From NCBI GenBank assembly GCA_030819375.1, contig GCA_030819375.1_4699.1: DNA of 38,456 nucleotides. One strand, 5' to 3'. Of the stretch, positions 5,936 through 31,246 are shown piece after piece; within the stretch, counting starts at the first letter, position 1, and each line of letters begins with the position of its first letter. This DNA comes from a phage. The notes beneath the pieces were generated by a model. It ran no database searches and had not been told where the DNA came from. It saw only the letters and a program-made list of their open reading frames with translations. The position numbers and the translations under genes are program-made.

Positions 5936-5951
5936 GTCTCACATGTGAGAC
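5936..5951. repeat. GTCTCACATGTGAGAC palindromic hairpin element (copy 1)
   Basis: Perfect 16-bp palindrome immediately upstream of the promoter at 5954. Confidence 0.8.
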
Positions 5952-5953
5952 TT

Positions 5954-5976
5954 ATTTACCGGACACTATAGGATAG
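5954..5976 (+). promoter_or_regulatory. Phage-RNAP promoter (ATTTACCGGACACTATAGG)
   Basis: Matches the recurring consensus; predicted +1 G at 5971. Confidence 0.75.
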
Positions 5977-6117
5977 CCGTCGGAGACGGGAAAGAAAGGG
6001 AAGATAAAGGATATAAAAGGAAGTAATAGGTATTAAAGGTTATATAGGTTATCTAGGAATACCTATTACCTTCTTCCTTCCTCTTATTACCACTTAGAGG
6101 AAGGGCAGATCTAGGTT

Positions 6118-6133
6118 GTCTCACATGTGAGAC
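6118..6133. repeat. GTCTCACATGTGAGAC palindromic hairpin element (copy 2)
   Basis: Perfect 16-bp palindrome immediately upstream of the promoter-like sequence at 6139. Confidence 0.8.
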
Positions 6134-6138
6134 TTCGT

Positions 6139-6161
6139 ATTTACCGGACAGTATAGATAAG
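6139..6161 (+). promoter_or_regulatory. Variant phage promoter-like sequence (ATTTACCGGACAGTATAGATA)
   Basis: Consensus with C-to-G change in the CACTATA core; arranged in tandem with 5954 like the paired promoters at the T7 primary origin. Confidence 0.45.
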
Positions 6162-6186
6162 ACTAACTTACTTTGGAGATTTAACC

Positions 6187-6264
6187 ATGCGTAACTTTGA
6201 GAAGATGACCCGTAAAGCTAACCGTTTGACATGGAAGAAGGGCAGAAGAAAGGCAAGAAGTTGA
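6187..6264 (+). CDS. Small basic peptide (25 aa, MRNFEKMTRKANRLTWKKGRRKARS), T7 gene 1.1-like position
   Basis: GGAGA RBS 7 nt upstream of ATG 6187; below ORF-track cutoff; lies between the tandem promoters and the primase gene. Confidence 0.3.
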   Translation: MRNFEKMTRKANRLTWKKGRRKARS

Positions 6265-6284
6265 ATGCGTGGGAGTTCTAAGTT

Positions 6285-8273
6285 ATGGCTATTATTCAGA
6301 ATGTACCGTGTCCTGCTTGCCAAAAGAACGGACATGATATTACTGGCAATCATTTAATGATCTTTGACGACGGGGCAGGATACTGTAATCGTGGTCACTT
6401 CCATGATAACGGTAAACCTTATTACCACAAGCCGGAAGGTGGCATCGAGATAACCGAGTTACCTATTACTGGCAATATCAAATATACACCTTCTCAATTC
6501 AAAGAAATGGAGAAGGAAGGGAAGATAAGCGACCCTAAATTACGTGCCATCGCACTAGGTGGTATGCGTATGAAAGACCGTTGGGAGGTCATGAATGAGC
6601 AAGAAAGGGCAGACCAAGAAGCAGAGTGGAAACTTGATGTTGAATGGTTCCTCACGCTTAAGCGTAAGAACCTTGTTTCCCGACACATTCGCGGTGACAT
6701 TTGCGCATTGTATGATGTACGTGTCGGACACGATGAAGAGGGTAGAGTCACGCGGCATTACTATCCACGCTTCGAGCAAGGTGAGCTAGTAGGAGCTAAG
6801 TGTCGCACATTACCTAAAGACTTTAAGTTTGGTCATTTAGGTAAACTCTTTGGTATGCAAGATCTTTTCGGGATGAATACTTTGTCTCACGTGTTAGACA
6901 GGGGAAGACGAAAGGATTGCTTGCTTATTGTGGGTGGGGAACTGGATGCGCTAGCAGCGCAGCAGATGCTCCTTGATTCTGCCAAGGGTACTAAGTGGGA
7001 AGGTCAACCTTACCATGTATGGTCTGTTAACAAAGGGGAGTCTTGCCTTGAAGAGATTGTACAGAACCGTGAACACATCGCCCAATTCAAGAAGATTATT
7101 TGGGGCTTCGATGGGGATGAGGTAGGGCAGAAGCAGAATCAGCAAGCGGCTCGCCTGTTTCCTGGTAAATCCTATATCCTTGAATACCCCTCTGGTTGCA
7201 AAGATGCTAACAAGGCATTGATGGCTGGCAAGGCTAAAGAATTTGTAGATGCATGGTTTAATGCCAAGTCATCTGATGAAGTCTTTGGTAGCCAGATTAA
7301 ATCTATCGCATCTCAAAGGGATAAGCTCAAGGCTGCACGTCCAGAGCAAGGGTTATCATGGCCTTGGCCTAAGCTGAACAAGGTAACGCTAGGTATTCGT
7401 AAGAACCAGCTTATCATTGTAGGTGCAGGCTCTGGTGTAGGTAAGACTGAGTTCCTTCGCGAAGTGGTTAAGCACCTCATTGAAGAACACGGTGAATCTG
7501 TAGGCATCATTTCTACAGAAGACCCAATGGTCAAGGTGTCCCGTGCTTTTATCGGCAAGTGGATTGATAAGCGTATTGAGTTACCGCCAACCAACGATCC
7601 GAAAGAAGACGGATACCGTGAGGTGTTCGACTACACCGAGGAAGAAGCTAACGCTGCCATTGATTATGTGGCTGATACAGGGAAGCTGTTTGTAGCTGAC
7701 CTAGAGGGTGACTATTCTATGGAGAAGGTAGAGCAAACTTGCCTAGAGTTTGAGGCTATGGGCATTTCTAATATCATCATTGATAACTTAACGGGGATTA
7801 AATTAGATGAGCGTGCTTTTGGTGGGAAGGTTGGTGCACTTGATGAATGCGTCAAGCGGATTGGTACTATCAAAGACAGACATGCAGTTACTATATTCCT
7901 TGTATCACACCTTACACGTCCTCCGGCAAACCGTACCCAACACGAAGAAGGTGGCGAGGTTATCCTTTCTGACTTCCGAGGCTCAGGGGCTATCGGATTC
8001 TGGGCATCTTACGCCTTGGGGATTGAGCGTAACACAAGAGCTGAAACGCTTGATGAAAGAACTACCACGTACATCTCATGTGTCAAAGACCGCGACCAAG
8101 GTATCTACACCGGAACCAAGATCATGCTTAAGGGTGACATTCAAACCGGACGTTTGAGAGAACCTCAAGCCCGTACTAGGTCATTTGACACAGGCGAAGC
8201 AAGGCAACAAGAAGTGCCTGATTTACCGGACACTATAGAAGAGACTAACTTCGATGAAGAAAGTGAGTTTTGA
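6285..8273 (+). CDS. DNA primase/helicase (T7 gp4-like), 662 aa
   Basis: N-terminal Cys4 zinc ribbon (CPACQ...CNRGH), Walker A GAGSGVGKT, acidic C-terminus ending ...FDEESEF. Confidence 0.95.
   Translation: MAIIQNVPCPACQKNGHDITGNHLMIFDDGAGYCNRGHFHDNGKPYYHKPEGGIEITELPITGNIKYTPSQFKEMEKEGKISDPKLRAIALGGMRMKDRWEVMNEQERADQEAEWKLDVEWFLTLKRKNLVSRHIRGDICALYDVRVGHDEEGRVTRHYYPRFEQGELVGAKCRTLPKDFKFGHLGKLFGMQDLFGMNTLSHVLDRGRRKDCLLIVGGELDALAAQQMLLDSAKGTKWEGQPYHVWSVNKGESCLEEIVQNREHIAQFKKIIWGFDGDEVGQKQNQQAARLFPGKSYILEYPSGCKDANKALMAGKAKEFVDAWFNAKSSDEVFGSQIKSIASQRDKLKAARPEQGLSWPWPKLNKVTLGIRKNQLIIVGAGSGVGKTEFLREVVKHLIEEHGESVGIISTEDPMVKVSRAFIGKWIDKRIELPPTNDPKEDGYREVFDYTEEEANAAIDYVADTGKLFVADLEGDYSMEKVEQTCLEFEAMGISNIIIDNLTGIKLDERAFGGKVGALDECVKRIGTIKDRHAVTIFLVSHLTRPPANRTQHEEGGEVILSDFRGSGAIGFWASYALGIERNTRAETLDERTTTYISCVKDRDQGIYTGTKIMLKGDIQTGRLREPQARTRSFDTGEARQQEVPDLPDTIEETNFDEESEF
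8221..8243 (+). promoter_or_regulatory. Phage promoter embedded in the 3' end of the primase/helicase gene
   Basis: ATTTACCGGACACTATAGAAGAG; +1 G at 8238; encodes DLPDTIEE in frame. Confidence 0.65.
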
Positions 8274-8288
8274 TTAGTGTATTTATCA

Positions 8289-8320
8289 GGGCTTGTCTCA
8301 CATGTGAGACAGGCTCTTAT
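8289..8320 (+). terminator. Hairpin with GTCTCACATGTGAGAC core (copy 3), terminator or processing site
   Basis: 18-bp perfect palindrome 8294-8311 inside a ~12-bp stem with a G-U pair, followed by a weak T-run. Confidence 0.5.
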
Positions 8321-8349
8321 TAAGTACATTAAATAACTGGATATTGATT

Positions 8350-9033
8350 ATGTATAAATTAGTATTGAATGTAGGTGATTATGTTCGTAACATCAATGTA
8401 ACCTCACGTAGATATCGTTGCCGTGGTACTGTGACTAATGTAAGTGAAAACAGCTACTATGTAGAGTACAGTAATGGTATTAGACAGGCTTATCAAAAGG
8501 AATCAGCACATAACTACCTTGAGAAGATTGGAGAGGTAAGCAATCAATGTAAGTGCGTACACGATGAGATTTGCGATAAGTGTGCCCGCCAGCTGCATAA
8601 AATGCTATTATACCCTCTTCGCTATGGTGCTGGTGTTCAAACATTAGCAGAGGCATATGGCAAAAGTAAGACCACACTCAAGAAAGAGCGCCGCAATGTA
8701 ATCACTGGTAAGACTCAAAGTGAAATGATTAAACTATGTGGCACTGCATTAGGTGTTACGCAGTTTAATACTCGTTCATTGGGTAAATCCACAGGGCAAG
8801 CTATGGTGAAAGTTGGTGAAGCTATGATGCACCCAAATGTGCCTGTGCGAATCTTGGATGTTGACCATGCAATCACAGAGCATGGCACACCACGGCGTGT
8901 AGCTAATAATCATTTCGCCGACACTATAGAAGGTATTATTCGTAAGCAAGGGTTGCAGGGTCTTCACATCTTAAATGGTGAAGAATTACTGTACCTACCT
9001 ATCGTTACTGAAGAAACATACGTGAATATCTAA
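8350..9033 (+). CDS. Hypothetical protein (~227 aa)
   Basis: ORF track 8344..9033 begins at TTG; first ATG is 8350; no recognisable motif. Confidence 0.55.
   Translation: MYKLVLNVGDYVRNINVTSRRYRCRGTVTNVSENSYYVEYSNGIRQAYQKESAHNYLEKIGEVSNQCKCVHDEICDKCARQLHKMLLYPLRYGAGVQTLAEAYGKSKTTLKKERRNVITGKTQSEMIKLCGTALGVTQFNTRSLGKSTGQAMVKVGEAMMHPNVPVRILDVDHAITEHGTPRRVANNHFADTIEGIIRKQGLQGLHILNGEELLYLPIVTEETYVNI
8912..8932 (+). promoter_or_regulatory. Promoter-like sequence inside a coding region (ATTTCGCCGACACTATAGAAGG)
   Basis: Core GACACTATAGAAG conserved, upstream half divergent; +1 G at 8929. Confidence 0.35.
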
Positions 9034-9043
9034 GGAGTTAATC

Positions 9044-9262
9044 ATGACTAAGGTATTAATTTATATGCGTGGACCTCATAAATGCTATGCAGTTGTAGCA
9101 CCAGATGGTGTTAAGCCCTATAGTACTTCAAAAGGATTGGCATTAATAGGTGCTAGTAGTAGTGCAAGTTTCCAAATGGAACTTTCTGGTCATTTGACTG
9201 AATGGCAATTCCGTGAGGCTTTTAAAGTCATTGGCAGCTTCATGGTGAAATATGCAGAATAA
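9044..9262 (+). CDS. Hypothetical protein (72 aa)
   Basis: AAGGAG RBS; ORF track. Confidence 0.6.
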   Translation: MTKVLIYMRGPHKCYAVVAPDGVKPYSTSKGLALIGASSSASFQMELSGHLTEWQFREAFKVIGSFMVKYAE

Positions 9263-9428
9263 ACATAGTCTTAAAATGTTCGATGGTCATGAAGACCTGC
9301 AAGCCAAGATTACTAACCAAGCCTTCCTGTTCGCACAGGTAACTATGGCTGAGGCCAAGAAGAATAGTCTCACTCGTGAACAGGTTATCAAGGAAAGTGA
9401 AGTGAAACGTAAGATTCGCAGTCGATAA
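9252..9428 (+). CDS. Small hypothetical protein (58 aa), below ORF-track cutoff
   Basis: ATG 9252 overlaps the end of the upstream gene; ORF ends 7 nt before the terminator hairpin; no strong RBS. Confidence 0.3.
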   Translation: MQNKHSLKMFDGHEDLQAKITNQAFLFAQVTMAEAKKNSLTREQVIKESEVKRKIRSR

Positions 9429-9434
9429 GTCAAG

Positions 9435-9466
9435 GGTTGTCTCACGTGTGAGACAGCCTTTTATCA
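9435..9466 (+). terminator. Intrinsic terminator-like hairpin with GTCTCACGTGTGAGAC core (copy 4)
   Basis: Stem ggttgtctca/tgagacagcc (10 bp, one G-U), loop CGTG, followed by TTTTATCAT. Confidence 0.65.
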
Positions 9467-9488
9467 TATTGATTGGAGGATTAACTTT

Positions 9489-9596
9489 ATGAATAACTAC
9501 GACTCTGATTGGGATTTCCAAGATTCAATGCAACCTAAACCAGAAAGGAGGGAGGATGAGTTCGAAACAGATCAAATGTACGAGGATTTTTACTAA
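9489..9596 (+). CDS. Small acidic hypothetical peptide (35 aa) overlapping the HNH start
   Basis: GGAGG RBS 9 nt upstream of ATG 9489; MNNYDSDWDFQDSMQPKPERREDEFETDQMYEDFY. Confidence 0.3.
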   Translation: MNNYDSDWDFQDSMQPKPERREDEFETDQMYEDFY

Positions 9597-10035
9597 CTAC
9601 ATCCTCTACTCTGATGGTCGAGTTCTTAACGAGAAAACAGGGCAATACCTAAGAGGTTACTTAGATAAGGATGGGTATCATATTATGAATATTAAAGGGA
9701 AACACCTTAAAGTTCATAGATTAGTTGCTACTCATTTCATACCTAACCCTAATAATTTACCTGAAGTTAACCATAAAGATCATGACCGTCTAAATAATAA
9801 TGATTGGAATCTAGAGTGGTGTACTCATCAAGATAACAACAAGCATAGTTTGCATTTAGTGATAGCTTCTTGTGCTAAACGCTATGACTTTATATCACCA
9901 CAGGGCGTCCATGTAGAAGTCTATAACCTACGTGAATTTTGTAGGAATAATAACCTACAACAATCTCATATGGTTAAGGTAGCTAAAGGTAAAGTAAGAC
10001 ATCATAAAGGTTGGACTAATTATGCTAGATGTTGA
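9556..10035 (+). CDS. HNH homing endonuclease (159 aa)
   Basis: KVHRLVATHFIPNP...EVNHKDHDRLNNNDWNLEWCTHQDN motif; GGAGGGAGG RBS; sits directly upstream of and overlapping the DNA polymerase start. Confidence 0.85.
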   Translation: MSSKQIKCTRIFTNYILYSDGRVLNEKTGQYLRGYLDKDGYHIMNIKGKHLKVHRLVATHFIPNPNNLPEVNHKDHDRLNNNDWNLEWCTHQDNNKHSLHLVIASCAKRYDFISPQGVHVEVYNLREFCRNNNLQQSHMVKVAKGKVRHHKGWTNYARC

Positions 10036-12568
10036 TTGGAAAGAATTTGGAAAGAATCGCATACTTGTCATGGATGCTGAAAGTAAAGGTCTGCTTGATG
10101 CTATTCGCTATGGTCATCGCGAAGACGTGCACATCATTTGCTGCATGGACTTGCTCACTACCGAGGAGTTCCTATTCTTCGACCCATATGAGATGCGTGA
10201 CCCTGAGGCAAGGGAACGCCTGAAGGAGTGGGAAGGCCATCAAGACGGAACCTTGGTTGATGGTGTTAACTTCCTGAAGCATTGTGAAGCTATTGTGTCA
10301 CAGAACTTCCTAGGATATGACGGTCTTCTCTTTGAGAAAGCATTCCCTGATATTTGGAAAGGCTTTAACTATACCGAGAAGCGCGGTAAGGGCAGACTCC
10401 GTGCTGACCTGTGTCCGGTGCGAGTCATGGATACGCTGGTGATGAGTCGCCTGTTAAACCCCGATAGACGCCTTCCTCCGCAAGCATATGCCAAAGGTAT
10501 GGGTAACGTCGCCCCTCACTCAATTGAGGCGCACGGCATCCGTATAGGTCGCTATAAACCGGAGAACGAGGACTGGTCTAAACTAACTGACCACATGGTT
10601 CACCGTGTACGTGAGGACGTGGCGATTGGTCGTGACTTGTTCCTCTGGCTCTTTAACGGGGAATGGATGGAGCACAAACGCCGTGGCGTGAATAAACGCA
10701 CGGGCCTAGGCATTGAGACAGCCTTCCACATGGAGTCCATTGTGGCGCTGGAGATGAGCCGTCAGGCCGAGCGCGGGTTCCGTCTGGACATCGACAAGGC
10801 TTTGGCCCGATGCGAAGAATTGGACGCTAAGATTGATGAGACAGTCGCAGCGTTCCGCCCTCACATGCCTATGCGTATCAAGTCTAAACCTTTTAAACCG
10901 GAAGAAAAGAATGAAGTATGCCAACGCGCAAATGAGTATGGAGCTAGCAACAATATACCTACTGTCCTTGACCCCTCACACTTTCTTCATGCCGAGAGAC
11001 GAGGAGATCGCAAGACAGTATGGAGTGTCACTACTAAGTCTGGTGATTGGTCGGCTAGTGTCAAGAAAGACTTTCCTCACCTTAGAGGAAACCGTAATGA
11101 CACGCCAAGCATCAAGTGGATTGGCGCTTACTCGCCTGTTACTTTCGAAGAGATTCCCTTGGGTAACAGGGATACAGTTAAGCAAGTGCTCTATGATTAT
11201 GGATGGAAAGGTGCTGAATTTAACGATACCGAGCAAGCGCATCTCGATGAGTACGGAGTGTTACCCAAACCTTGGAGTGGTAAGATAAATGAAAAGTCCC
11301 TTACTTTATGGCAAGAAAGAGCCGCACGTGAAGGTAAAACAGTCCCTGATTGGTGCTTGGGTATCGCTGCATGGTACATACTCGTATCCCGTCGTGGTCA
11401 GATACTCAACCGTGGTGACGTTGAAGCCTTCAACGAGAAGGGAACGTGGCCCTCGCAGGCTGGTGTACGAAAGTGTCGCGGCCTTGTACCTGTAGCATTC
11501 AACAAGGAGCTAGGAATCAATGCGCAGCAATACTACGAGAGGTACGGATGTTGGCCTACGTCTGACAAAGATGACGGAGAGTGGCGTGTTCCAGCTGTTG
11601 CTATTAGCATTGGCACTTCTACGTTCCGTATGCGTCATCGTAACGTGGTCAATATTCCTGCCCGTGGCTTGTATCCTTTACGTGATTTATTCATAGCAGG
11701 GAAAGGCAAGCTAATCCTTGGTTGTGACGGTGCAGGTCTTGAACTGCGTGTCCTGTCTCACTTCATGAATGACCCTGAGTACCAAGAGATTGTACTGCAC
11801 GGTGATATTCATACGCATAACCAGATGAAGGCTGGTCTTCCTAAGCGTGATATGGCGAAGACGTTTATATACGCCTTCCTCTATGGCTCTGGTATAGCCA
11901 ACCTTGCAGCAGTATGTGGTGTTACTGAGGAAGAAATGAAGGAAGTTGTGGCAAGATTCGAGATTGAACTGCCGTCTCTTGCACGTCTTCGTGAGAATGT
12001 TATCGCACAAGGTAACAAGTTTGGCTACCTGCAAGCACCTGATGGGCATTGGGGTCGCATCCGCATGTCTGGTGGTGAACTTAAAGAGCACACGATGCTT
12101 AACGTATTACTCCAGATGACTGGCTCTTTGTGTATGAAATATGCATTAGTCAAGGCATTTGCAGTAATGCGCAAGGAAGGTGTAGCCTTGGACGCTATGG
12201 GAAATCCTTGTGGTGTGGCTAACGTGCATGATGAAATCCAGATGGAAGTTCCTGAAGAGGAGGTCTTGTATCTTAACTACGACCTACCTTTCACCTTAGA
12301 TGGGTTCGAAACAGAGAAGGCTGCCGTGCAAGCAGTGTTCGATGCAGAGGAGAAACGTGTTCATGTGGATTCTGAAGGACGTATGTGGTCTGCTGCAAAC
12401 CTCGTTAGTGTTGATGCTGATGCTGGTGTATTGCATTGCCAGCGCCGTTATCACCGTGCAGGTCATATCATTGCCGACGCCATGACTTGGGCAGGGCAGT
12501 ATCTGAAGATGCGTTGCCCGATGGCAGGCGAATATAAGATTGGCGCAAGTTGGAAGGAAACACACTGA
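10022..12568 (+). CDS. DNA polymerase, family A (T7 gp5-like), 848 aa
   Basis: Exo I motif ILVMDAE, motif B KTFIYAFLYGSG, motif C VHDEIQ; size close to what I recall for SP6-type polymerases. Confidence 0.95.
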   Translation: MLDVDWKEFGKNRILVMDAESKGLLDAIRYGHREDVHIICCMDLLTTEEFLFFDPYEMRDPEARERLKEWEGHQDGTLVDGVNFLKHCEAIVSQNFLGYDGLLFEKAFPDIWKGFNYTEKRGKGRLRADLCPVRVMDTLVMSRLLNPDRRLPPQAYAKGMGNVAPHSIEAHGIRIGRYKPENEDWSKLTDHMVHRVREDVAIGRDLFLWLFNGEWMEHKRRGVNKRTGLGIETAFHMESIVALEMSRQAERGFRLDIDKALARCEELDAKIDETVAAFRPHMPMRIKSKPFKPEEKNEVCQRANEYGASNNIPTVLDPSHFLHAERRGDRKTVWSVTTKSGDWSASVKKDFPHLRGNRNDTPSIKWIGAYSPVTFEEIPLGNRDTVKQVLYDYGWKGAEFNDTEQAHLDEYGVLPKPWSGKINEKSLTLWQERAAREGKTVPDWCLGIAAWYILVSRRGQILNRGDVEAFNEKGTWPSQAGVRKCRGLVPVAFNKELGINAQQYYERYGCWPTSDKDDGEWRVPAVAISIGTSTFRMRHRNVVNIPARGLYPLRDLFIAGKGKLILGCDGAGLELRVLSHFMNDPEYQEIVLHGDIHTHNQMKAGLPKRDMAKTFIYAFLYGSGIANLAAVCGVTEEEMKEVVARFEIELPSLARLRENVIAQGNKFGYLQAPDGHWGRIRMSGGELKEHTMLNVLLQMTGSLCMKYALVKAFAVMRKEGVALDAMGNPCGVANVHDEIQMEVPEEEVLYLNYDLPFTLDGFETEKAAVQAVFDAEEKRVHVDSEGRMWSAANLVSVDADAGVLHCQRRYHRAGHIIADAMTWAGQYLKMRCPMAGEYKIGASWKETH

Positions 12569-12684
12569 TGGATAGGCTTGACATTGTTTACCTCTTCTTC
12601 ACTTTCTTTCTTACACTCCTTATGCTTGCTTGTTATGGGAGTATGAGACTAGATATACCTGATGAAGAAGAGGGTTACGACTAA
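12568..12684 (+). CDS. Small hydrophobic peptide (38 aa), candidate membrane protein
   Basis: ATG overlaps DNAP stop (tgATG); MDRLDIVYLFFTFFLTLLMLACYGSMRLDIPDEEEGYD. Confidence 0.35.
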   Translation: MDRLDIVYLFFTFFLTLLMLACYGSMRLDIPDEEEGYD

Positions 12685-12782
12685 TGCAAACTGCTTTTAT
12701 TATTCTTGGTATCATATTATTTATGGTAGTATTCTGGGCTTTCTCTGGCATTGACCCAGATTGTGATGGTAACTACGACTGA
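12684..12782 (+). CDS. Small hydrophobic peptide (32 aa), similar design to the preceding one
   Basis: taATG overlap; MQTAFIILGIILFMVVFWAFSGIDPDCDGNYD; one TM-like helix then acidic tail ending YD. Confidence 0.35.
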   Translation: MQTAFIILGIILFMVVFWAFSGIDPDCDGNYD

Positions 12783-12791
12783 GTTATACTC

Positions 12792-12813
12792 AAGGTCACT
12801 TACGAGTGGCCTT
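12792..12813 (+). other. Hairpin (stem aaggtcact/agtggcctt, loop UACG) with the same flanks as the 31213 element
   Basis: ttatactcaagg-[hairpin]-cctttatga framework shared with 31204-31246. Confidence 0.35.
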
Positions 12814-12840
12814 TATGAATAACTTAACTAAGGAAATATT

Positions 12841-13642: not shown

Positions 13643-14449
13643 ATGGCACGTGGTGATTTTGATTTTGGTGCTCAGGTTACTAAAGCTGAAGGTAAGGTTT
13701 TTAAGAACCCTGAAGTTGGTGATCATGAAGCAGTAATCTCTGGCATCATTCATGTGGGTTCCTTCCAAGATATCTTTAAGAAAGGTAATACCACTGAAGT
13801 TAAGAAGCCAGCAAACTTTGTTCTTGTTAAGATTGTACTGATGGGTGACGATGACAAGAACGAAGATGATTCTCGCATGGAACAGTGGATGGCTGTGCCT
13901 CTGAAGTCTGGTGACAAGGCAACCTTGACTAAGTTCCTGAATGCAGTTGACCCTAAAGAGCTGCTTGGTGGTTTCGATGACTTCATTGGTGAATGCCTGA
14001 CTGCAACTATGGTTGGCTCTGGCGACAAGAAGGATGATGGTACTTTCAAGTATGTTAACTGGAAAGGCTTTGGCGGTATGCCTGATAAGTTGAAGAAGCT
14101 TGTAATGGCTCAGGTAGAAGAGGAAGGTCTGTCTATGACAGGTCATATCACCTTCGACAAGCTGACCAAAGAAATCCTTGATGACATTCCTGCTAACTTG
14201 GTACGTCAATACTTCCTGAACGAGACACCTCGTGGTAAGAACCTGTCTGTTGCTGGCTCTCACGTAGAAGCTATTATCAAAGCTGCTCGTGAAGAAGACC
14301 CTGAATGGAAGAAGGCTAAGAAGAAAGACGAGGAAGATGCTACTCCAGCTAATCGTAAGTCTCTGGATACTGGCGAGTCTGTTCCACAGGAAGTACCTGA
14401 AGCAGAAGATACTCCTGCACCGGAGATGGATGAGGACGCGGAATATTAA
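13643..14449 (+). CDS. Putative ssDNA-binding protein (gp2.5-like), 268 aa; function inferred
   Basis: Strong RBS (AGGAGA) directly after a promoter; size and acidic C-terminal tail ending in an aromatic residue (...PEMDEDAEY) resemble T7 gp2.5. Confidence 0.45.
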   Translation: MARGDFDFGAQVTKAEGKVFKNPEVGDHEAVISGIIHVGSFQDIFKKGNTTEVKKPANFVLVKIVLMGDDDKNEDDSRMEQWMAVPLKSGDKATLTKFLNAVDPKELLGGFDDFIGECLTATMVGSGDKKDDGTFKYVNWKGFGGMPDKLKKLVMAQVEEEGLSMTGHITFDKLTKEILDDIPANLVRQYFLNETPRGKNLSVAGSHVEAIIKAAREEDPEWKKAKKKDEEDATPANRKSLDTGESVPQEVPEAEDTPAPEMDEDAEY

Positions 14450-14678: not shown

Positions 14679-14694
14679 GTCTCACGTGTGAGAC
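14679..14694. repeat. GTCTCACGTGTGAGAC hairpin element (copy 5)
   Basis: 6-bp stem with 4-nt loop directly after the stop codon at 14677 and 15 bp upstream of the promoter at 14710. Confidence 0.7.
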
Positions 14695-14709: not shown

Positions 14710-14732
14710 ATTTACTGGACACTATAGAAGAG
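14710..14732 (+). promoter_or_regulatory. Phage-RNAP promoter (ATTTACTGGACACTATAGAAGAG)
   Basis: Perfect consensus; +1 G at 14727. Confidence 0.85.
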
Positions 14733-14782: not shown

Positions 14783-15154
14783 ATGTTCAAGATTGAAACT
14801 ATCGTAAACCGTGTTGTTAAAGGTGCTGCTCTGGTATCCGTTGAGTCTTTCATTATCGTCGATGAAGATGATCAACTGGTAGCTGGTACTAAGGCTTACG
14901 ATACCCGTGAAGAAGCTCAGGCTAAGATTGACAGCATGGGTAACTTCGCTGCTGGTCTGGAGTTCGCTCGTGCTTGCTTCCCTGAGCAGGCTGACAAAGC
15001 TCAGATTGGTAAGGCTAATATCGTAGCTGAATATCTGGATTGGGTTGCTGCTGGTAAACCAATGAAAGAAATTAAGGCTGCTGAAGAAGCTGAAGCTCCA
15101 GCAGAAGAAGTAGCTGCACCGGAAACTCCGGTAAGCGAAGAGGAAGAATTTTGA
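14783..15154 (+). CDS. Acidic hypothetical protein (123 aa) ending ...SEEEEF; gene sits between a promoter and a terminator
   Basis: Promoter 14710 upstream, terminator 15213 downstream; acidic C-terminal tail ending in Phe. Confidence 0.8.
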   Translation: MFKIETIVNRVVKGAALVSVESFIIVDEDDQLVAGTKAYDTREEAQAKIDSMGNFAAGLEFARACFPEQADKAQIGKANIVAEYLDWVAAGKPMKEIKAAEEAEAPAEEVAAPETPVSEEEEF

Positions 15155-24375: not shown

Positions 24376-24388
24376 TTTAGGAGGATTC

Positions 24389-25129
24389 ATGCCTTTAATT
24401 CAAAATACAAGTGATGTTGGACGTATCATGGCTGAGGCTTCCTTCAATATCATTGATAGCAAGCTGGAAGCAGTTAACCTGTGTATGCGAGCTATTGGTC
24501 GTGAGGGTGTGGATTCCCTTGACTCTGGCGACTTAGATGCTGAAGATGCTAACAAGATTATTGATATTGTCTCACAACGTTTCCAATACAATAAGGGCGG
24601 TGGTTGGTGGTTTAACAGAGAACCTAACTGGTTACTTAAACCTGACACAAATGGTGAAGTGAACATGCCAAACAATTGCCTTGCTGTTCTCCAATGCTAT
24701 GCTCTGGGTGAACGTAAAGTCCCTATAACTATGCGCGCAGGTAAACTGTACTCTGTTTGGAATCACACTTTCGACATGTCAAAGTATGTGAATCAGGATG
24801 GGCGTATTAGGTTGACTTTGGTAACATTGCTGCCTTTTGAGCATCTACCTGCAAGCGTAATGCAAGCCATTGCCTATCAGGCTGCCGTAGAGTTTATTGT
24901 GTCTAAAGATGCAGATAAGACTAAACTACAAGCACACCAGCAGATTGCAGCACAATTGATGATTGATGTTCAGTCAGAGCAGTCTTCTCAGAAGAGACTT
25001 AATATACTTGTACATAACCCCACTCAGCGCAACTTTGGCATTATGGCAGGTGGCTCTCAGAATGTACCAGCGTTCTCCTATTCACCTTATGGTACTTACC
25101 CTGTAAGGCCGTGGGAGGTTGATAGATAA
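24389..25129 (+). CDS. Tail tubular protein A (gp11-like), 246 aa
   Basis: Position and size; AGGAGG RBS. Confidence 0.8.
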   Translation: MPLIQNTSDVGRIMAEASFNIIDSKLEAVNLCMRAIGREGVDSLDSGDLDAEDANKIIDIVSQRFQYNKGGGWWFNREPNWLLKPDTNGEVNMPNNCLAVLQCYALGERKVPITMRAGKLYSVWNHTFDMSKYVNQDGRIRLTLVTLLPFEHLPASVMQAIAYQAAVEFIVSKDADKTKLQAHQQIAAQLMIDVQSEQSSQKRLNILVHNPTQRNFGIMAGGSQNVPAFSYSPYGTYPVRPWEVDR

Positions 25130-27534
25130 TGGAAGTACAAGGCTCTTTAGGTCGTCAGATTCAAGGTATTAGCCAACAACCAGCAGCAGTGCGGTTAGAT
25201 GGTCAATGTACTGATATGGTTAATATGGTTCCAGATGTAGTCAACGGTACACAATCTCGCATGGGAAGCACACACATTGCTAGGCTTCTTGATTCTGGTG
25301 ACGAAAACATGGCAACACATCATTACCGCAGAGGTGATGGTGTAGAGGAATATTTCTTCATTATGAAGAAAGGTAGCGTGCCAGAAATATTTGACAAAGA
25401 AGGTCGTAAATGCACTGTGACCTCTCAGGATGAACCTATGGCCTATCTTGCTGAGGTTGTGAACCCGAGAGAAGACGTGCAGTTCATGACTATTGCTGAT
25501 GTAACATTTATGCTTAACAGGCGTAAAGTAGTGAAAGCTCGTAGTGATAAGTCTCCAAAGGTGGGAAACAAGGCTATTGTGTTTTCTGCCTACGGGCAGT
25601 ATGGCACTTCGTACACTATCTCTATTAACGGCGAGCAAGCGGCGACCTTCAAAACTCCAGATGGAAGCGACCCTAGTCATGTAGAACAGATTCGCACTGA
25701 GTACCTAGCAACTAAGCTATATGAGAGTTTACAGACATGGAGTAAAGCGTCACAGTACACCTTGCAAAGAGAAGGCACTAGTATCTACATTGAAACTAAA
25801 GATGGTAGTGATTTCACTATTACTACTACAGATGGGGCCAAGGGTAAGGACTTGGTTGCCATAAAGAACCGAGTGTCATCTACAGACTTACTTCCCTCAA
25901 GAGCACCAGAAGGGTACAAGGTACAGGTGTGGCCTACAGGTAGTAAACCAGAATCTCGGTATTGGCTAGAGGCTGTACCTAAAGAGGGAGGTAACTTAGT
26001 TGCTTGGCAAGAAACTATTGCAGCAGATGTGTTACTTGGCTTTGATAAAGACACTATGCCTTATATTATAGAGCGTACAGGTATTGTCGGAGGTGTGGCA
26101 CAGTTTAAGATACGACATGGCGATTGGGAAGACCGTAAGGTAGGCGATGACCTAACTAACCCTATGCCTTCTTTTATTGATGAAGATGTACCACAGGCGA
26201 TTGGTGGTATGTTCATGGTGCAGAACCGTCTTTGTGTCACAGCAGGAGAAGCTGTCATAGCAACTAGGACTTCTCACTTCTTTGACTTCTTCCGCTTCTC
26301 CGCAGTGTCTGAGGTTGCAACAGATCCTTTTGATATTTTCTCAGATGCAAGTGAGGTCTACCAGCTCAAACATGCAGTAACACTAGATGGGGCAACGGTA
26401 TTATTCTCAGACACATCTCAGTTCATACTTCCTGGGGATAAAGTATTAGAGAAATCTAATGTCATACTCAAGCCTGCTACAACTTTCGAAGTGGATAATA
26501 GGGTGTCACCTGTGGCAACTGGTGAATCCGTGATGTTTGCTACAAGTGAAGGTGCTTACTCTGGTGTGCGTGAGTTTTATACCGACTCTTACAGCGACAC
26601 TAAGAAAGCACAGGCTGTTACTAGTCATGTTAACAAGTTGATAGAAGGTAATATAACTCATATGGTTGCTAGCACTAATATCAACAGGTTACTTGTGGTA
26701 ACAGACAGGGACCCTAATATTGTCTATTGCTATGACTGGTTGTGGCAAGGGACAGATCGTGTACAATCTGCATGGCATAAGTGGGTGTGGCCTAAAGATA
26801 CTTTGATTCGCTCTATGTTCTATTCCTCAGAGGTATTGTATCTCCTTGTAGAACGAGGTAATACTGGTTTGTATCTAGAGGTGATGGATATGGGTGATGC
26901 TCTTACTTATGGTTTAGTTGACAGAATTAGACTGGATAGGCAAGCAGAGTTGATCTTCACCTATGATGCTAATACAGACCAGTGGGTTTCTAATGAGTTG
27001 CCTTGGAAGCCTACTGACCCAGCCTTACTTGAGTGTGTGATAATTCAAGGGTGGCCTGCTTATATTGGTGGTTCTTTTCATTTTGAATATGATGAAGCCA
27101 GTAATAAGCTAATTACAACTTTTGATTTATCAGAAGAAGGCACTAATGCTATAGCTGTCGTAGGGCAGTTGTATCAGCAGGAGTTTGAGCCAACACAGGT
27201 CGTTATTCGAGATAACCAAGATAGAGTGTACTACATAGATGTGCCAGTGGTAGGCCTAGTTCACCTTAACTTGGATAAATACCCTGACTTTGAAGTTCAT
27301 ATCAAGAACTTAAAGAGTGGCAAATTAAGAAAGGCTTTGGCATCTAACAGGAAAGGCGGGGCACTTAATAATGTTGTTGGTTATGTCAAGCCAGAAGAGG
27401 GGTCATTCAAATTTCCACTAAGATCCCTTAGTACAGATACTGTTTATCGTATCATTGTTAACTCCCCTCATACATTCCAACTCAGGGATATTGAGTGGGA
27501 AGGTTCGTATAACCCAACTAAGAGGAGGGTATGA
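25129..27534 (+). CDS. Tail tubular protein B (gp12-like), 801 aa
   Basis: Size close to T7 gp12 (~794 aa); position. Confidence 0.9.
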   Translation: MEVQGSLGRQIQGISQQPAAVRLDGQCTDMVNMVPDVVNGTQSRMGSTHIARLLDSGDENMATHHYRRGDGVEEYFFIMKKGSVPEIFDKEGRKCTVTSQDEPMAYLAEVVNPREDVQFMTIADVTFMLNRRKVVKARSDKSPKVGNKAIVFSAYGQYGTSYTISINGEQAATFKTPDGSDPSHVEQIRTEYLATKLYESLQTWSKASQYTLQREGTSIYIETKDGSDFTITTTDGAKGKDLVAIKNRVSSTDLLPSRAPEGYKVQVWPTGSKPESRYWLEAVPKEGGNLVAWQETIAADVLLGFDKDTMPYIIERTGIVGGVAQFKIRHGDWEDRKVGDDLTNPMPSFIDEDVPQAIGGMFMVQNRLCVTAGEAVIATRTSHFFDFFRFSAVSEVATDPFDIFSDASEVYQLKHAVTLDGATVLFSDTSQFILPGDKVLEKSNVILKPATTFEVDNRVSPVATGESVMFATSEGAYSGVREFYTDSYSDTKKAQAVTSHVNKLIEGNITHMVASTNINRLLVVTDRDPNIVYCYDWLWQGTDRVQSAWHKWVWPKDTLIRSMFYSSEVLYLLVERGNTGLYLEVMDMGDALTYGLVDRIRLDRQAELIFTYDANTDQWVSNELPWKPTDPALLECVIIQGWPAYIGGSFHFEYDEASNKLITTFDLSEEGTNAIAVVGQLYQQEFEPTQVVIRDNQDRVYYIDVPVVGLVHLNLDKYPDFEVHIKNLKSGKLRKALASNRKGGALNNVVGYVKPEEGSFKFPLRSLSTDTVYRIIVNSPHTFQLRDIEWEGSYNPTKRRV

Positions 27535-28259
27535 TGGCAGTAATGGCAACAGTAGGATCAAGCCTAGCCAGTATGTTCTCCAGTAGTGCAGGTGCTGCGG
27601 CTGCTAGTAGCGCTGCTGGTAGTGCCGCCGCTGGGAGTGGTGGTGTGCTTGGCTCTGTCGGAAGTTTCTTAGGTGGAAGCTCTGCTGGCTTTTCTAATGC
27701 AGGTTTGTTGTCTGCTGGACTACAAGGCTTAAACTTACTAGGCGGCCTATTCGGTGGACGAGATACCGCTAAGGCTATGCAGAAAGCACAAGAAGAAGAG
27801 TGGAGACAAAGGCTAGAAGCCACACGTGAAGCCTATTCTTCTGTGGCAAATGCAGAACGGTCTGCTGCAAAGCAATATCATTCTGACTTCCTTAATAATC
27901 AAATTTCACTGATGCAGCAACGAGCGCAAGTTGCAGTAATGGCAGGTGCTACTGGAACAGGTGGTAGCTCCATCACATCCATGCTCAATGATTTGACGGC
28001 AGAAGGCGGTCGTAATCAGTCAACCATTATAGATAATTATGAGAATCAGCAAATCAACTTTGCCAACCAGTTGAAGTCTATTCAACGCAGTGGACAGATG
28101 CAGATGCGAACGTTTGACAAACCTTCCGCTTTGGGTACTTTGGTGAAAGGTATACCAAGCCTTGCATCTTCCTATGTCACCGGAAGTAAAGCAGGTATGG
28201 CGCTTGGCAAGGCTATCACTGAGTCTCGTACTTATTCATCAGGAACTAGAGGGGTTTAA
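27531..28259 (+). CDS. Internal virion protein (small core protein), 242 aa, Gly/Ala/Ser-rich N-terminus
   Basis: Position after tail tube B; GAGGAGGG RBS. Confidence 0.8.
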   Translation: MMAVMATVGSSLASMFSSSAGAAAASSAAGSAAAGSGGVLGSVGSFLGGSSAGFSNAGLLSAGLQGLNLLGGLFGGRDTAKAMQKAQEEEWRQRLEATREAYSSVANAERSAAKQYHSDFLNNQISLMQQRAQVAVMAGATGTGGSSITSMLNDLTAEGGRNQSTIIDNYENQQINFANQLKSIQRSGQMQMRTFDKPSALGTLVKGIPSLASSYVTGSKAGMALGKAITESRTYSSGTRGV

Positions 28260-31202
28260 ATGGCAATTGAACGTCAAGCTGTACAAGGTTTAGAAAGAGT
28301 ACAGTCAAGGGGTGCGCCAATGCCTATGTCTTTCACACCACGACAAGTGAGTATCTCAGGGGGCGCTGATGCCTCCGGTAGTAGATTTTTGGAAGACTTA
28401 GTAAACGCCGCAAGTAGTGTGGCTGATGTCACTACTGCTATCCTTAATCAGCAAGTAGAAGACGATAAGGTTCGCCAGATGGATAGGGCTTTGTCTGGCA
28501 TGATGCCTTCTGAGGATGCCACGGTAGGCGGTGCTCGTGCTCATATGCTGGTTAGTTTACAAAATGATGTAATCGCACAGACAACTGCGCTACAAGCAGA
28601 AGCACAGCGATTTCAAGGTAGTGACGAGGATTGGGAAAACTATGTAGTTCAATCTCGTAATGAGGTACAAAATAGGTTATGGCAAAGTTATCCAGAGCTT
28701 CGTGGTGACAAAGATTCTATGAGGCTTGTCACTAACGCGTTCATGGAGCAGCAACCTAGAATTACTGCAACTAGAGCAGAGGCTAAACTTCGTCAAGAAG
28801 AAGAAGCACGAATGCAATCTATGCAGTCTCGTATTATCATGGCTACAAGGGACGTAGCGCCAGATGCCACTGGTGCAGCTCTTATCCAGCTACAAAAAGA
28901 AGCACTGGCGATGGGTCTTAGTAAACCTGAGTTTGATCAAATGGTTGCTAAGATTGCATCTGAAAGAGCGGCAGTAGGAGATGATAGTCTTATTCAGGGA
29001 ACCAAGGCATTGGTGGATGATAAGGGTGTCTCTTTGTATGACCGTGTTGGTGCTTTGCAAACTGGAGAAATTCAAGCTAACAGAACTTGGGCTGCTCAGA
29101 ATCAGGTTGCCCTCTTCGAGAAGAAAGATGCAGCTATAAAGGCATTCGATGCAGGGCAACTTACTCGCGAAGAGTTACTTCAGGTGATGCAGAATCACAA
29201 TGAATTGACTGGTGGCACTGCTTGGTCTGATAGCGAGATCAAGGCTATCTTCGATAGGCAAGCTAAGGTTAATGCAGAGAAAGCAAAGCTAGAAGATCTT
29301 ATTGCACGAGGTGAATCTGGGTCGCCTTTAGGCTTACAGGACATTAGTAAGGATGACAGAAAGGCATATGCTGAAGCCTTAGTTAGTACCTACACTAAGC
29401 TGGCAGAAGATGAAATTGCCCGTACTGGTGCAACGGGAGAACAGGCTGAAGCTATTCGCGGTAGGTATGAGCAGATGCGTTATCTTAAATTGGGTCAACA
29501 GCTTATTGAAGACCCGATCATTAAGGAAAGGTATTCGTCGCTTATGCAGCTATCCTCTGCCAACCTCAAGGATATGAATGTTGAACCTGAAGCACTGCAA
29601 ACTATCATGCGAGCACGTGATTCTATTCCAGAGGATGCACGTCGTGCTGTTATGGGAGACAAAGAATATGCCTTTGTTGAGAACTATGACTTAGCAACTC
29701 GCATGGGGTATAACACAGGTCAAGCTATTGAGTTTGCACAGAATGCCTCTCGCGGCGAGAAATTACAAGGTTCTGTGCTCAAAGAACTTAATGATGATGT
29801 AGATGGAGTAGTTAGTGACATTGCAGGAGGCAGCTGGCTCACTTTTGGTGATAACATGAGTGAAATGGGACGTGACATTATGATGGAGGAGGCAAGTACA
29901 ATTGCTAGAGCAATGAAGGTTGCAGGCCATAATAATGACACTATTAAGCGTCACCTTAAATCCTACCTTACAAGCCAGTATACACAATTATCAGAAGGTT
30001 TCTTTACTCAAGGTGTTCTTGTAAAAGGAGACATTCGTACGTTAGGAGATACTATAGGAGTAAACCAAGGAGACGTCCCAATTACTCTCCGTCAGTACCT
30101 AGATAATAACAAACAAGCCCTGCTAGATGCATCAGGTGGGTTAGAGGAAGGCGACCTATATTTTGATGTAGATGCGAAGCGCGGCCTCTTTACTATACGT
30201 GCAGGCTCTGGTCGTGTGCCTGTTACACAGGCAATGCCTTTGTCTGAAATCAAAGGGCAATCCTTGCTTAAGCAACGGTATAATGCAGAGGTTAAAGCAC
30301 GTGATGAAGGGCGTAAGAACTTTGAAGCACAACAAATGCGAATGTGGGGCGCAGGTGGCTACCAAGCACAACCACCTGCAAAGACTACAGCCAAAACTGT
30401 AGGCTCACGTGGGATTGCTGACTTCTTAATGTCACCTGCCTTTGCATCAGGCGAGAATCTACCAGCAAACTTTGAGTTCGGATATAAGAGAAATAATATG
30501 GACTTCTACAATTATGTAGCCAAGATGGAGAATAATACCAATGTAGGTTTTGACCGAGTAGCTGGTGTTTATACACCATACAAAGATGCACATGGTCAGT
30601 CTGTAGGGTACGGTCACTTCCTTACTACTGAAGAGAAGAAGAACGGATACATTATGATTGGTACAGAGAAAGTGCCATTCACTCCGGGACAATCTCAATT
30701 AACACCAGAACGAGCCATGCGCCTTCTACAGCAAGACTTGAAGAGTCATGTGCCAAGTACTTCAGGATGGGCTGTTCCCTTCGAAGAGATGCACCCAGGT
30801 GTTCAGCGTGGCCTTATGGACTTGTCCTATAATTTAGGAAAAGGCGGGATCCAGAATGCTCCTAAGGCATACGCTGCATTTAAGGCTGGCAAGTTTACTG
30901 ATGGCTTCATCGAGATGCTATCTACTGCATCTACTGAAGGCAAGCGCAGCACTGGATTGTTAGTTCGTAGGGCGGAAGCTTATAACCTTGCACAGAGTGG
31001 TGGTGCTATCCCTAAGATTAGTGAAGTGGAGACACGAGCAGATGGATCTATGTATGTGAAGTTTGCAGGACAGATGTCAGAGGCTTTCGTAAATAAATCA
31101 ATCTACAATCAGATTGGTAAGGATGGGTGGATGCAAGTGTATCCTCCAAAGCAAGGTGCACTTGCACCTAACACTCAGATTGGTAGAATCAAACTGAGCT
31201 AG
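28260..31202 (+). CDS. Internal virion (ejection) protein with C-terminal lysozyme-like domain, 980 aa
   Basis: Residues ~740-910: YKDAHGQSVGYGH...LTPERAMRLLQQDL...LMDLSYNLGKGG...LLVRRAEAYNL resembles GH24 phage lysozymes. Confidence 0.9.
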   Translation: MAIERQAVQGLERVQSRGAPMPMSFTPRQVSISGGADASGSRFLEDLVNAASSVADVTTAILNQQVEDDKVRQMDRALSGMMPSEDATVGGARAHMLVSLQNDVIAQTTALQAEAQRFQGSDEDWENYVVQSRNEVQNRLWQSYPELRGDKDSMRLVTNAFMEQQPRITATRAEAKLRQEEEARMQSMQSRIIMATRDVAPDATGAALIQLQKEALAMGLSKPEFDQMVAKIASERAAVGDDSLIQGTKALVDDKGVSLYDRVGALQTGEIQANRTWAAQNQVALFEKKDAAIKAFDAGQLTREELLQVMQNHNELTGGTAWSDSEIKAIFDRQAKVNAEKAKLEDLIARGESGSPLGLQDISKDDRKAYAEALVSTYTKLAEDEIARTGATGEQAEAIRGRYEQMRYLKLGQQLIEDPIIKERYSSLMQLSSANLKDMNVEPEALQTIMRARDSIPEDARRAVMGDKEYAFVENYDLATRMGYNTGQAIEFAQNASRGEKLQGSVLKELNDDVDGVVSDIAGGSWLTFGDNMSEMGRDIMMEEASTIARAMKVAGHNNDTIKRHLKSYLTSQYTQLSEGFFTQGVLVKGDIRTLGDTIGVNQGDVPITLRQYLDNNKQALLDASGGLEEGDLYFDVDAKRGLFTIRAGSGRVPVTQAMPLSEIKGQSLLKQRYNAEVKARDEGRKNFEAQQMRMWGAGGYQAQPPAKTTAKTVGSRGIADFLMSPAFASGENLPANFEFGYKRNNMDFYNYVAKMENNTNVGFDRVAGVYTPYKDAHGQSVGYGHFLTTEEKKNGYIMIGTEKVPFTPGQSQLTPERAMRLLQQDLKSHVPSTSGWAVPFEEMHPGVQRGLMDLSYNLGKGGIQNAPKAYAAFKAGKFTDGFIEMLSTASTEGKRSTGLLVRRAEAYNLAQSGGAIPKISEVETRADGSMYVKFAGQMSEAFVNKSIYNQIGKDGWMQVYPPKQGALAPNTQIGRIKLS

Positions 31203-31212
31203 TGTTATACTC

Positions 31213-31246
31213 AAGGTTTGTCTCACATGTGAGACATGCCTTTATG
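31213..31246 (+). terminator. Hairpin with GTCTCACATGTGAGAC core (copy 6), terminator or processing site
   Basis: Stem ggtttgtctca/tgagacatgcc, loop CATG, then TTTATGA; directly after the stop at 31202. Confidence 0.5.

Follow-up and report, generated by a model that had tools for sequence, protein, structure and literature searches.

The window analyzed here is a stretch of 38,456 nucleotides of phage DNA (GenBank assembly GCA_030819375.1, contig GCA_030819375.1_4699.1). It represents the left 38.4 kb of a Vectrevirus genome (Autographiviridae, Molineuxvirinae; K1-5/K1E/SP6 group) and is 97% identical to Escherichia phage LL11. We followed up a 16-bp palindrome, GTCTCACRTGTGAGAC, that recurs in the window, together with an early gene whose product most likely reads it. 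The palindrome occurs six times in exact form (5936-5951, 6118-6133, 8295-8310, 9439-9454, 14679-14694, and 31220-31235) against an expectation of 0, and it was absent from 100 dinucleotide shuffles of the window. A preliminary description, made from the sequence alone, had listed these six copies, five at the right coordinates and the last off by one (as 31221-31236). A mismatch-tolerant scan added two degenerate copies, one at 318-333 (GTCTCACACGTTAGAC), which had been noted before, and one at 6884-6899 (GTCTCACGTGTTAGAC), which had been missed. Phage promoters (ATTTACYGGACASTATAG) start at 5954, 6139, and 14710, which puts them 2, 5, and 15 nt downstream of three bare copies; the preliminary description had given a range of 2 to 20 bp for these three. 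The relevant features of the window are as follows.

1859 to 2743, plus strand: gene of an SP6 gp7-like early protein (294 amino acids), in the early region directly upstream of the RNA polymerase (RNAP) gene
318 to 333, no strand: degenerate putative operator with a hybrid half-site, GTCTCACACGTTAGAC, at the left end of the genome, 23 bp upstream of the first sigma-70-like early promoter
357 to 386 and 401 to 429: first and second sigma-70-like early promoters
5868 to 5891, plus strand: generic intrinsic terminator without the 16-mer core, 3' of the RNAP gene; the first operator beyond it lies 44 nt downstream
5936 to 5951, no strand: putative operator, GTCTCACATGTGAGAC, 2 nt upstream of the phage promoter at 5954-5971
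6118 to 6133, no strand: putative operator, GTCTCACATGTGAGAC, 5 nt upstream of the phage promoter at 6139-6156
6884 to 6899, no strand: putative intragenic operator, GTCTCACGTGTTAGAC, in codons 200 to 205 (L-S-H-V-L-D) of the primase/helicase open reading frame (ORF; 6285-8273)
8288 to 8317, plus strand: extended terminator-like hairpin with a 13-bp stem including G·U pairs, apex at the putative operator 8295-8310, followed by CUUAUU, just past the primase/helicase stop codon
9432 to 9461, plus strand: extended terminator-like hairpin, apex at the putative operator 9439-9454, followed by UUUUAUC
14679 to 14694, no strand: putative operator, GTCTCACGTGTGAGAC, 15 nt upstream of the phage promoter at 14710-14727
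31213 to 31242, plus strand: extended hairpin, apex at the putative operator 31220-31235, followed by UUUAUG, between the internal virion protein genes at 28260-31202 and 31266-35069

Occurrence and arm types in SP6-like phages

The preliminary description had proposed a search for the same 16-mer in related phages. In an IMG/VR scan, the exact 16-mer was present in multiple copies in close relatives and also in contigs whose hallmark proteins are only 30 to 60% identical to those of the window. SP6, with 84% RNAP identity, contained no exact GTCTCACRTGTGAGAC and had a different arm type, GTC(T/C)AAC-RY-GTTGGAC, at all six positions orthologous to the window copies. We then typed a panel of complete genomes by a generalized pattern and a de novo palindrome census and laid out the context of the copies. 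The element was found at syntenic slots in 12 out of 12 SP6-like genomes examined and was absent from the genome parts examined of T7 and Ralstonia phage BOESR1. The arm types were GTCTCAC, GTCYAAC, GTCTAGT, GTTTCAC, GTCTACA, GTAACAC, and GTCTAGC, with a center of 2 or 3 nt, and a single arm type was common to all copies within each genome. The complete genomes were distributed as follows.

GTCTCAC, 2-nt center: Vectrevirus, Era103
GTCTCAC, 3-nt center: Vibrio phage phiA318, Pseudomonas phage Achelous, Aeromonas phage MJG
GTCYAAC, 2-nt center: SP6, Klebsiella phage K1-ULIP33, Kp7, VLCpiA2a, Lelliottia phage phD2B, Pectobacterium phage POP72
GTCYAAC, 3-nt center: Proteus phage PM116 (plus one 2-nt copy)
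GTCTAGT, 2-nt center: Escherichia coli phage ECBP5

The syntenic slots are at the left end before the first promoters, past the RNAP gene terminator and before the first phage promoters, at about codon 200 of the primase/helicase gene, 3' of that gene, before the DNA polymerase region, upstream of a middle-region promoter, and between two internal virion protein genes. Left-end copies start at 493 in SP6, 456 in K1-ULIP33, 533 in Kp7, 596 in phD2B, 387 in PM116, 741 in Era103, and 444 in Achelous. Further slots, within the RNAP gene and near the right end, were used in some phages only. The RNAP gene copies (around codons 471 to 517) were seen in phD2B (L111; 4901), POP72 (L112; 4801), Era103 (L103; 5754), phiA318 (L105; 4686), and Achelous (L115; 5246), mostly in an S-(N/H)-V-L-D frame; the RNAP genes of the window and of SP6 had no such copy.

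The intragenic primase/helicase copies are syntenic in LL11, SP6, K1-ULIP33, phD2B, POP72, Kp7, and VLCpiA2a. In this frame, a perfect GTCTCAC..GTGAGAC palindrome would create an in-frame TGA codon, and the window, LL11, and Era103 carry TTA or GGA at that place. The recurrent degenerate G12T variant, seen in the window at 6884, is explained by the avoidance of TGA. The encoded residue in intragenic copies, His (CAC) or Asn (AAC), follows the arm type of the genome. These copies are under selection at the nucleotide level and depart from the arm type of their genome only where the frame requires it. A different overlap with coding sequence was observed in Era103 (L103), where the operator at 10395-10410 covers the end of the HNH endonuclease-like gp12, the TGA of the palindrome serves as the gp12 stop codon, and the ribosome-binding site (RBS) of gp13 begins 1 nt past the operator.

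Dispersed, nearly identical copies within a genome could in principle arise without any dedicated reader, as a palindromic repeat family homogenized by gene conversion or spread (REP- or MITE-like), or they could be sites for a host protein. The same 16-mer also turns up in some viral contigs unrelated to these phages (a prophage family, L060, and L071), which would fit such an explanation. However, the slots are syntenic across subfamilies, even within essential genes, so the copies are not recent insertions. A host factor is difficult to reconcile with arms that differ between phages of one host (GTCTCAC in the E. coli Vectrevirus and GTCTAGT in E. coli phage ECBP5) and between phages of E. 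coli and Salmonella whose RNAPs are 84% identical. An explanation without a dedicated reader also leaves unaccounted for the exception-free co-variation and the successful blind prediction described in the next section; it is largely refuted, and we give it hardly any weight. Since each genome uses one arm type and this type differs between phages of the same or nearly identical hosts, the reader is expected to be encoded by the phage.

Two further origins were considered and rejected. An association with homing endonucleases was not borne out: HNH genes lie near some copies and near most there are none, and in SP6 the element is present although no HNH gene is annotated. The window itself has a free-standing HNH endonuclease gene (9556-10035; Pfam HNH_3, PHROG HNH endonuclease) upstream of the DNA polymerase gene and overlapping its start. 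A homolog was not detected in SP6 or Kp7, which suggests that this gene is a mobile insertion. Nor does an obvious module exchange explain the C-type arm in Vectrevirus, as a search for swapped genes found 0 proteins closer to Era103 than to SP6.

Outside the SP6-like phages, contig L071 (IMGVR_UViG_2784746770_000001; 129 kb, GC rich, not T7-like) has three exact copies of GTCTCACATGTGAGAC, at 964, 1004, and 3004, each the apex of a long, GC-rich perfect hairpin (e.g., CGTCTGGCGT-core-ACGCCAGACG); a search of 9.6 kb of it revealed no gp7-like domain. A set of prophage-like contigs from bacterial isolates (L011 to L015, L022, L051 to L055, L057, L059, L065, L066, L069, L070, L076, L081, and L098 to L101) shares one common locus, gtaaatcaaacaggAAGCTT-GTCTCACGTGTGAGAC-AAGCCTctcc, with the same 16-mer and a short extended stem in an unrelated context. 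Scans of L011 to L013, L051, L054, and L066 revealed no gp7-like domain. By a rough estimate, singleton 16-mers in unrelated contigs are near the level expected by chance for a collection of this size. In ECBP5 (L114), we also observed a second recurrent palindrome, GTACTAG-N4-CTAGTAC, at 5995, 6061, and 14590, about 25 to 40 nt from GTCTAGT elements (6034 and 14567). It is present in L159 as well and may be a second operator type or the site of a partner protein.

Co-variation of the arms with an early protein

We searched the alignments of 22 conserved protein families for columns that follow the arm type. Only 6 of approximately 9,000 columns did so, and 2 of the 6 were in the SP6 gp7-like protein encoded at 1859-2743 of the window. 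One of these is residue 66 (K66 in the window), which lies in a putative recognition helix. The other tracking columns were E167 and P648 of the primase, D40 of gp72, and L131 of the exonuclease, and no DNA-reading motif was identified around them. Residue 66 is Lys in all five GTCTCAC phages, Asn or His in all six GTCYAAC phages, and Arg (together with Q63W) in ECBP5, the GTCTAGT phage. Lys66 thus goes with a C:G pair at position 5 of the site and Asn66 with an A:T pair.

The sample was widened to 45 IMG/VR loci that contain a gp7-like gene with 10-kb flanks, and the helix and the dominant palindrome were called independently of each other. The pairings across all samples were as follows.

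Q63/Y65/K66: GTCTCAC, in every GTCTCAC lineage, down to 31% identity
N or H at 66: GTCYAAC
AQAYNLV (L160, an independent deep lineage): GTCTAAC
AQASKLM, S65 (L146 and L150): GTTTCAC
W63/R66 (ECBP5): GTCTAGT
KAYVYRLM, Y63/R66 (L156): GTCTACA, in nine copies
KAHTYRLM, H63/R66 (L152): GTAACAC

We also performed a blind test in which divergent homologs were picked by the helix alone. A new W63/K66 signature (P0179) led to a new arm, GTCTAGC, in L161, and two Q/Y/K homologs led to GTCTCAC-type sites in L162 and L163. In total, 8 helix signatures (residues 63, 65, and 66) corresponded to 8 arm types in about 50 distinct genomes with 0 exceptions wherever the pairing could be scored; one locus, L158, had no clear element. 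The palindrome is therefore most likely an operator of the SP6 gp7-like early protein. The claim in the preliminary description that the conserved core points to sequence-specific recognition rather than to a generic hairpin was right, and among the recognition modes it had listed, the last one, a site for a dimeric DNA-binding protein, is favored by the co-variation of arm and recognition helix.

The spacing of the half-sites may have a correlate in the protein as well. Most lineages with a 3-nt center carry an insertion of 3 to 4 residues before HTH (helix-turn-helix) helix 2 (e.g., MKDEGKKQ in phiA318), which is missing from most lineages with a 2-nt center. The exceptions are PM116, with a 3-nt center and no insertion, and L146 and L152, with a 2-nt center and an insertion. 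This insertion is a possible determinant of spacing.

The sequence of the gp7-like protein suggests an HTH (DFLAYVEAEFG-IKKAQCYKLMSVARVF) that is joined by a long linker of low complexity to a helix with heptads, after which comes a C-terminal module that is conserved. An AlphaFold2 model built from a 73-sequence alignment follows the same layout. Its N-terminal domain (residues 2 to 122) is helical, with predicted local distance difference test (pLDDT) scores of 85 to 92, and contains the HTH in helices 46 to 57 and 61 to 74, the latter being the recognition helix with Q63, Y65, and K66. Residues 125 to 191 are modeled as disordered, residues 193 to 232 as a single 40-residue helix with a heptad pattern (pLDDT, 93), and residues 239 to 293 as a helical C-terminal domain with a J-like fold. 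In the model, the N-terminal domain has a DNA-binding fold of the ParB/KorB type. Matches to the PDB in Foldseek were not significant, with ParB-parS and Noc among the weak ones, and the closest viral models were uncharacterized or DUF3102 proteins. The C-terminal domain has the J-domain fold in the model and is J-like only: the HPD tripeptide that J-domain proteins carry between helices II and III and need for stimulating Hsp70 is missing, and the loop carries a conserved G-Y-G-x-x-H instead. Compared with the KorB architecture (PMC11790492), no ParB/Srx CTPase N-terminal domain or GERRxR-type motif was present in the sequence or the model, in which the DNA-binding domain begins at residue 2.

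Homology to ParB or KorB was not detectable at the sequence level, as the window protein had no Pfam match and a profile search against PDB sequences returned no ParB or KorB. Distant homologs reached Pfam DUF3102 below the threshold (23.2 bits versus a cutoff of 24.4), and some UniRef homologs are named DUF3102, an uncharacterized family. Scans of T7, BOESR1, and the available sequence of unrelated contigs with the 16-mer yielded no gp7-like protein.

RNA hairpin or duplex DNA site

We compared the two forms, transcript hairpin and duplex DNA, using 101 copies from 12 genomes for flank pairing and 108 copies for the center, the flanking bases, and the context. The preliminary description had pointed out three copies with an extended stem and a T-run, and these folded strongly as RNA: -19.7 kcal/mol at 8295, -17.9 at 9439, and -15.1 at 31220 (z = -6.0, -4.9, and -3.9, respectively). 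The bare copies, at about -7 kcal/mol (z of about -1.1 to -1.5), were indistinguishable from shuffled sequences, and the copy at 318 reached only -2.7 kcal/mol. A hairpin followed by a U-tract was accordingly found at 8295, 9439, and 31220 and not at 318, 5936, 6118, 6884, or 14679. Across the genomes, 24 of the 101 copies had at least 6 of 7 flanking pairs, compared with 1.65 expected. Their pairing is confined to the sense-strand RNA, with 46 G·U pairs versus 1 A·C pair, and 0 copies qualify on the antisense strand alone. These 24 extended copies are genuine terminator-like hairpins of the RNA. The remaining 77 copies had random flanks, with 2.86 of 7 pairs. A perfect phage promoter was also observed at 8221-8238, in the 3'-terminal part of the primase/helicase ORF (end at 8273) and 57 nt before the hairpin at 8288-8317; transcripts from it would reach this hairpin almost at once.

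The element could be primarily an RNA signal, a transcript hairpin that serves the phage RNAP, a nuclease, or an RNA-binding protein in termination, processing, or 3'-end stabilization, and thus a functional analogue of the T7 RNase III sites. Besides the sense-strand pairing of the 24 copies and the strong folding of the three extended window copies ahead of U-tracts, lineages differ at both partners of the upper stem pairs 5/12, 6/11, and 7/10, the loop measures 2 or 3 nt, and the genomic distribution is like that of T7 RNase III sites. However, changes on both sides are equally expected for a symmetric operator, and several properties of the core are those of duplex DNA. The center is symmetric, always R..Y, which a loop does not need, and it is strand neutral (GT in 27 copies and AC in 20; AGT in 13 and ACT in 13). 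The flanking base is A or T in 106 of 108 copies on one side and 103 of 108 on the other. Hybrid sites of C-type and A-type arms, in which pair 5-12 is broken, recur in noncoding DNA (318 in the window, 741 in Era103, 3188 in Achelous, and 24 and 2620 in MJG). Some conserved copies are also located within coding sequence. The majority of copies, with random flanks, a stem of 6 to 7 bp, and about -7 kcal/mol, are too short for RNase III, and many lie past a strong separate terminator or before a promoter, where only read-through would transcribe them. The T4·G13 wobble in SP6 is no proof of a sense-strand RNA stem, since a wider census found the T4/C4 asymmetry in both directions (11 versus 7), which counts against an RNA element. 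Rfam contained no family for the element; its sole match, Ocean-VII, lay elsewhere in the window at chance level (E = 0.61). An RNA signal also leaves the co-variation with a DNA-binding helix unexplained, and we regard it as an improbable primary function.

Because the arm type co-varies with the helix residues of the early protein, the core is better read as a double-stranded DNA operator and not primarily as an RNA signal. RNA processing or termination by the phage RNAP, the first possibilities raised in the preliminary description, thus do not hold for the family as a whole and survive as a second layer in the extended copies. There, the terminator hairpins may reuse an existing palindrome, or they may form a two-layer boundary in which a protein roadblock is combined with an RNA terminator. 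A primase recognition site was also considered, as the invariant GTC resembles the T7 primase site, and was rejected because the SP6 primase reportedly uses GCA and because such a site explains neither the arm types nor the symmetry.

Two known classes of RNA element resemble the copies in part. Like class I intrinsic terminators of T7-type RNAPs, the hairpins at 8295, 9439, and 31220 and the other extended copies are stable structures with G·U pairs and U-rich tracts at gene ends. They differ in that the apex sequence does not vary within a genome and evolves in step with a protein and in that most copies have neither an extended stem nor a U-tract, while the ordinary terminators of the window (5868, 15213, and 24342) lack the core. 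T7 RNase III sites (R0.3 to R18.5) are similar in number, about 8 to 10, and in distribution, with a concentration in the early and middle region, where they occupy gene boundaries close to promoters. As RNA, the T7 sites form hairpins that measure about 20 bp or more and contain internal loops, whereas the elements described here have bare stems of 6 to 7 bp or extended stems of 13 bp without an internal loop, are strand neutral, and track a DNA-binding helix.

A proposed KorB-like role and its alternatives

In the proposed mechanism, the 16-mer would be a two-fold symmetric duplex operator with the half-site W-GTCTCAC-R and an RY center. The reader is predicted to dimerize through its coiled coil, with two HTH domains on long disordered linkers and the J-domain-like module following the coiled coil. 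Each HTH domain would read one half-site, with residues 63, 65, and 66 setting the arm sequence, and the long linkers could explain why a center of either 2 or 3 bp is tolerated. As its gene immediately precedes the RNAP gene, in the early region that the host transcribes, the reader would be made early by the host RNA polymerase. It would then occupy about eight sites: before the first early promoters, before three middle-region phage promoters, within the primase gene, and at three gene boundaries. At 8295, 9439, and 31220, where flanks and a U-tract extend the palindrome, the sense-strand RNA hairpin should terminate or stabilize transcripts.

What the bound protein does is suggested by the contexts of the copies. 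Approximately 30 of the 108 copies are at most 32 nt upstream of phage promoters, the sequences of which differ between lineages. Nine copies abut an RBS, several are directly 3' of a separate terminator, and one precedes the first promoters of its genome. Because of these contexts, the most likely role is that of a KorB-like regulator or insulator, acting without a CTP clamp, which would mark the boundaries of transcription units genome-wide and modulate promoter use or read-through.

The closest known system is KorB, a global repressor of the ParB family, with its OB operators on the IncP plasmid RK2. The OB sites of KorB are similarly placed, either 4 bp in front of a -35 element or at a distance of kilobases (PMC11790492). 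The gp7-like protein differs from KorB in that it lacks the CTPase N-terminal domain and the GERRxR/GARRYR motif, so that no sliding clamp is expected, and in having no sequence similarity. Its predicted coiled-coil dimerization and added J-like domain also set it apart. The operator is GTCTCAC-RY-GTGAGAC here and TTTAGCGGCTAAA for KorB, and the setting is a virulent T7-like phage in which most adjacent promoters are for the single-subunit phage RNAP. A KorA-like partner was not identified.

The same reader and sites could have another job, without transcription control, as ParB/parS-like loading and organizing sites or as origin-recognition sites that serve compaction, protection, internalization, or replication, possibly with chaperone recruitment through the J-like domain. 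The ParB/Spo0J-like fold speaks for such a function, as do the natural arm GTTTCAC, which equals the parS half-site, the copies within genes and near both genome ends, and the C-terminal J-like fold, which recalls J-domain-bearing origin-binding proteins. In addition, the sites at 5936 and 6118 bracket a purine- and AT-rich repeat (5972-6117) between tandem promoters past the RNAP gene. This repeat consists of GGAAG, TAGG, and AGGTTA units between the promoters at 5954 and 6139 and is conserved in SP6 (6125-6262). Its position matches the T7 primary replication origin (phi1.1A/B plus an AT-rich region). However, spreading or clamping is unlikely without a CTPase N-terminal domain or GERRxR motif, the J-like domain has no HPD, and the most regular context of the sites is adjacency to promoters, RBSs, and terminators. 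We know of no need for partition in virulent T7-like phages. The comparison with ParB/Spo0J-parS and Noc-NBS also showed differences in the sites. The arms resemble each other (here GTCTCAC or, in L146 and L150, GTTTCAC), but the half-sites of the 16-bp parS palindrome TGTTNCACGTGAAACA abut (TGTTTCAC-GTGAAACA), and those described here have 2 to 3 extra bp between them. The phage system has neither a CTPase domain nor a ParA partner, and its sites cluster at promoters and gene boundaries of lytic phages, not near a segregation origin. We consider an organizing or origin function the main alternative, if a rather unlikely one, and retain the KorB-like regulator or insulator.

Two other conserved proteins of the window, encoded at 13643-14449 and 14783-15154 and without a known function, terminate in an acidic stretch closed by an aromatic residue (...EMDEDAEY and ...PVSEEEEF). 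Similar acidic tails in the T7 single-stranded DNA-binding protein (SSB) gp2.5 and in gp4 dock on the DNA polymerase. The 268-amino-acid protein from 13643-14449 is a candidate SSB of the SP6 group; Pfam and PDB sequence searches gave no match for it, and Pfam, PHROGs, and PDB sequence searches were uninformative for the other conserved proteins of unknown function.

In the literature searched, we found no description of either the element or the protein; an earlier mention of the inverted repeat in the original SP6 or K1-5 genome papers is possible. None of seven variant sequences of the element appeared in the searched literature, and the papers on UAB_Phi78 and phiA318 contained no description of it. 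A dimeric HTH protein with dispersed palindromic operators is already known in kind. New here are the setting in a virulent T7-like phage, the make-up of a lone DNA-binding domain with a coiled coil and a J-like module, the use of operators as terminator apices, and a natural series of specificity switches.

Control in T7-like phages is the textbook case of promoter strength, a phage RNAP, and RNA processing, and a genome-wide operator-based regulator is not part of that picture. We tentatively suggest, at somewhat less than even confidence, that the SP6-like phages (Molineuxvirinae, Colwellvirinae, and Gajwadongvirus) share an unrecognized family-wide system, in which a minimal CTPase-less reader of the ParB/KorB fold, fused to a coiled coil and a J-like domain, and about 8 to 10 dispersed operators bound the transcription units of the host and phage RNAPs. 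Its specificity would have been retuned at least six times by one or two helix substitutions, with all operators replaced in concert, including the copies within essential genes. If true, the system would do the job of T7 gp0.7, gp2, lysozyme, and the RNase III sites, and it would offer a natural and readable protein-DNA recognition code.

Confirmation would assign a function to one of the few universally conserved early genes of unknown function in the SP6/K1-5 group, the source of SP6 RNA polymerase, whose members are widely used in therapy against K1/K5 E. coli, Klebsiella, and Salmonella. It would also provide eight natural orthogonal protein-operator specificities that differ by one or two residues, for use in synthetic biology and for the study of how a specificity and its targets change together, and it would indicate that the ParB/KorB DNA-binding module can work without a CTP switch. 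For the annotation of SP6-like genomes, the results supply rules by which operators, and terminators built on operators, can be recognized.

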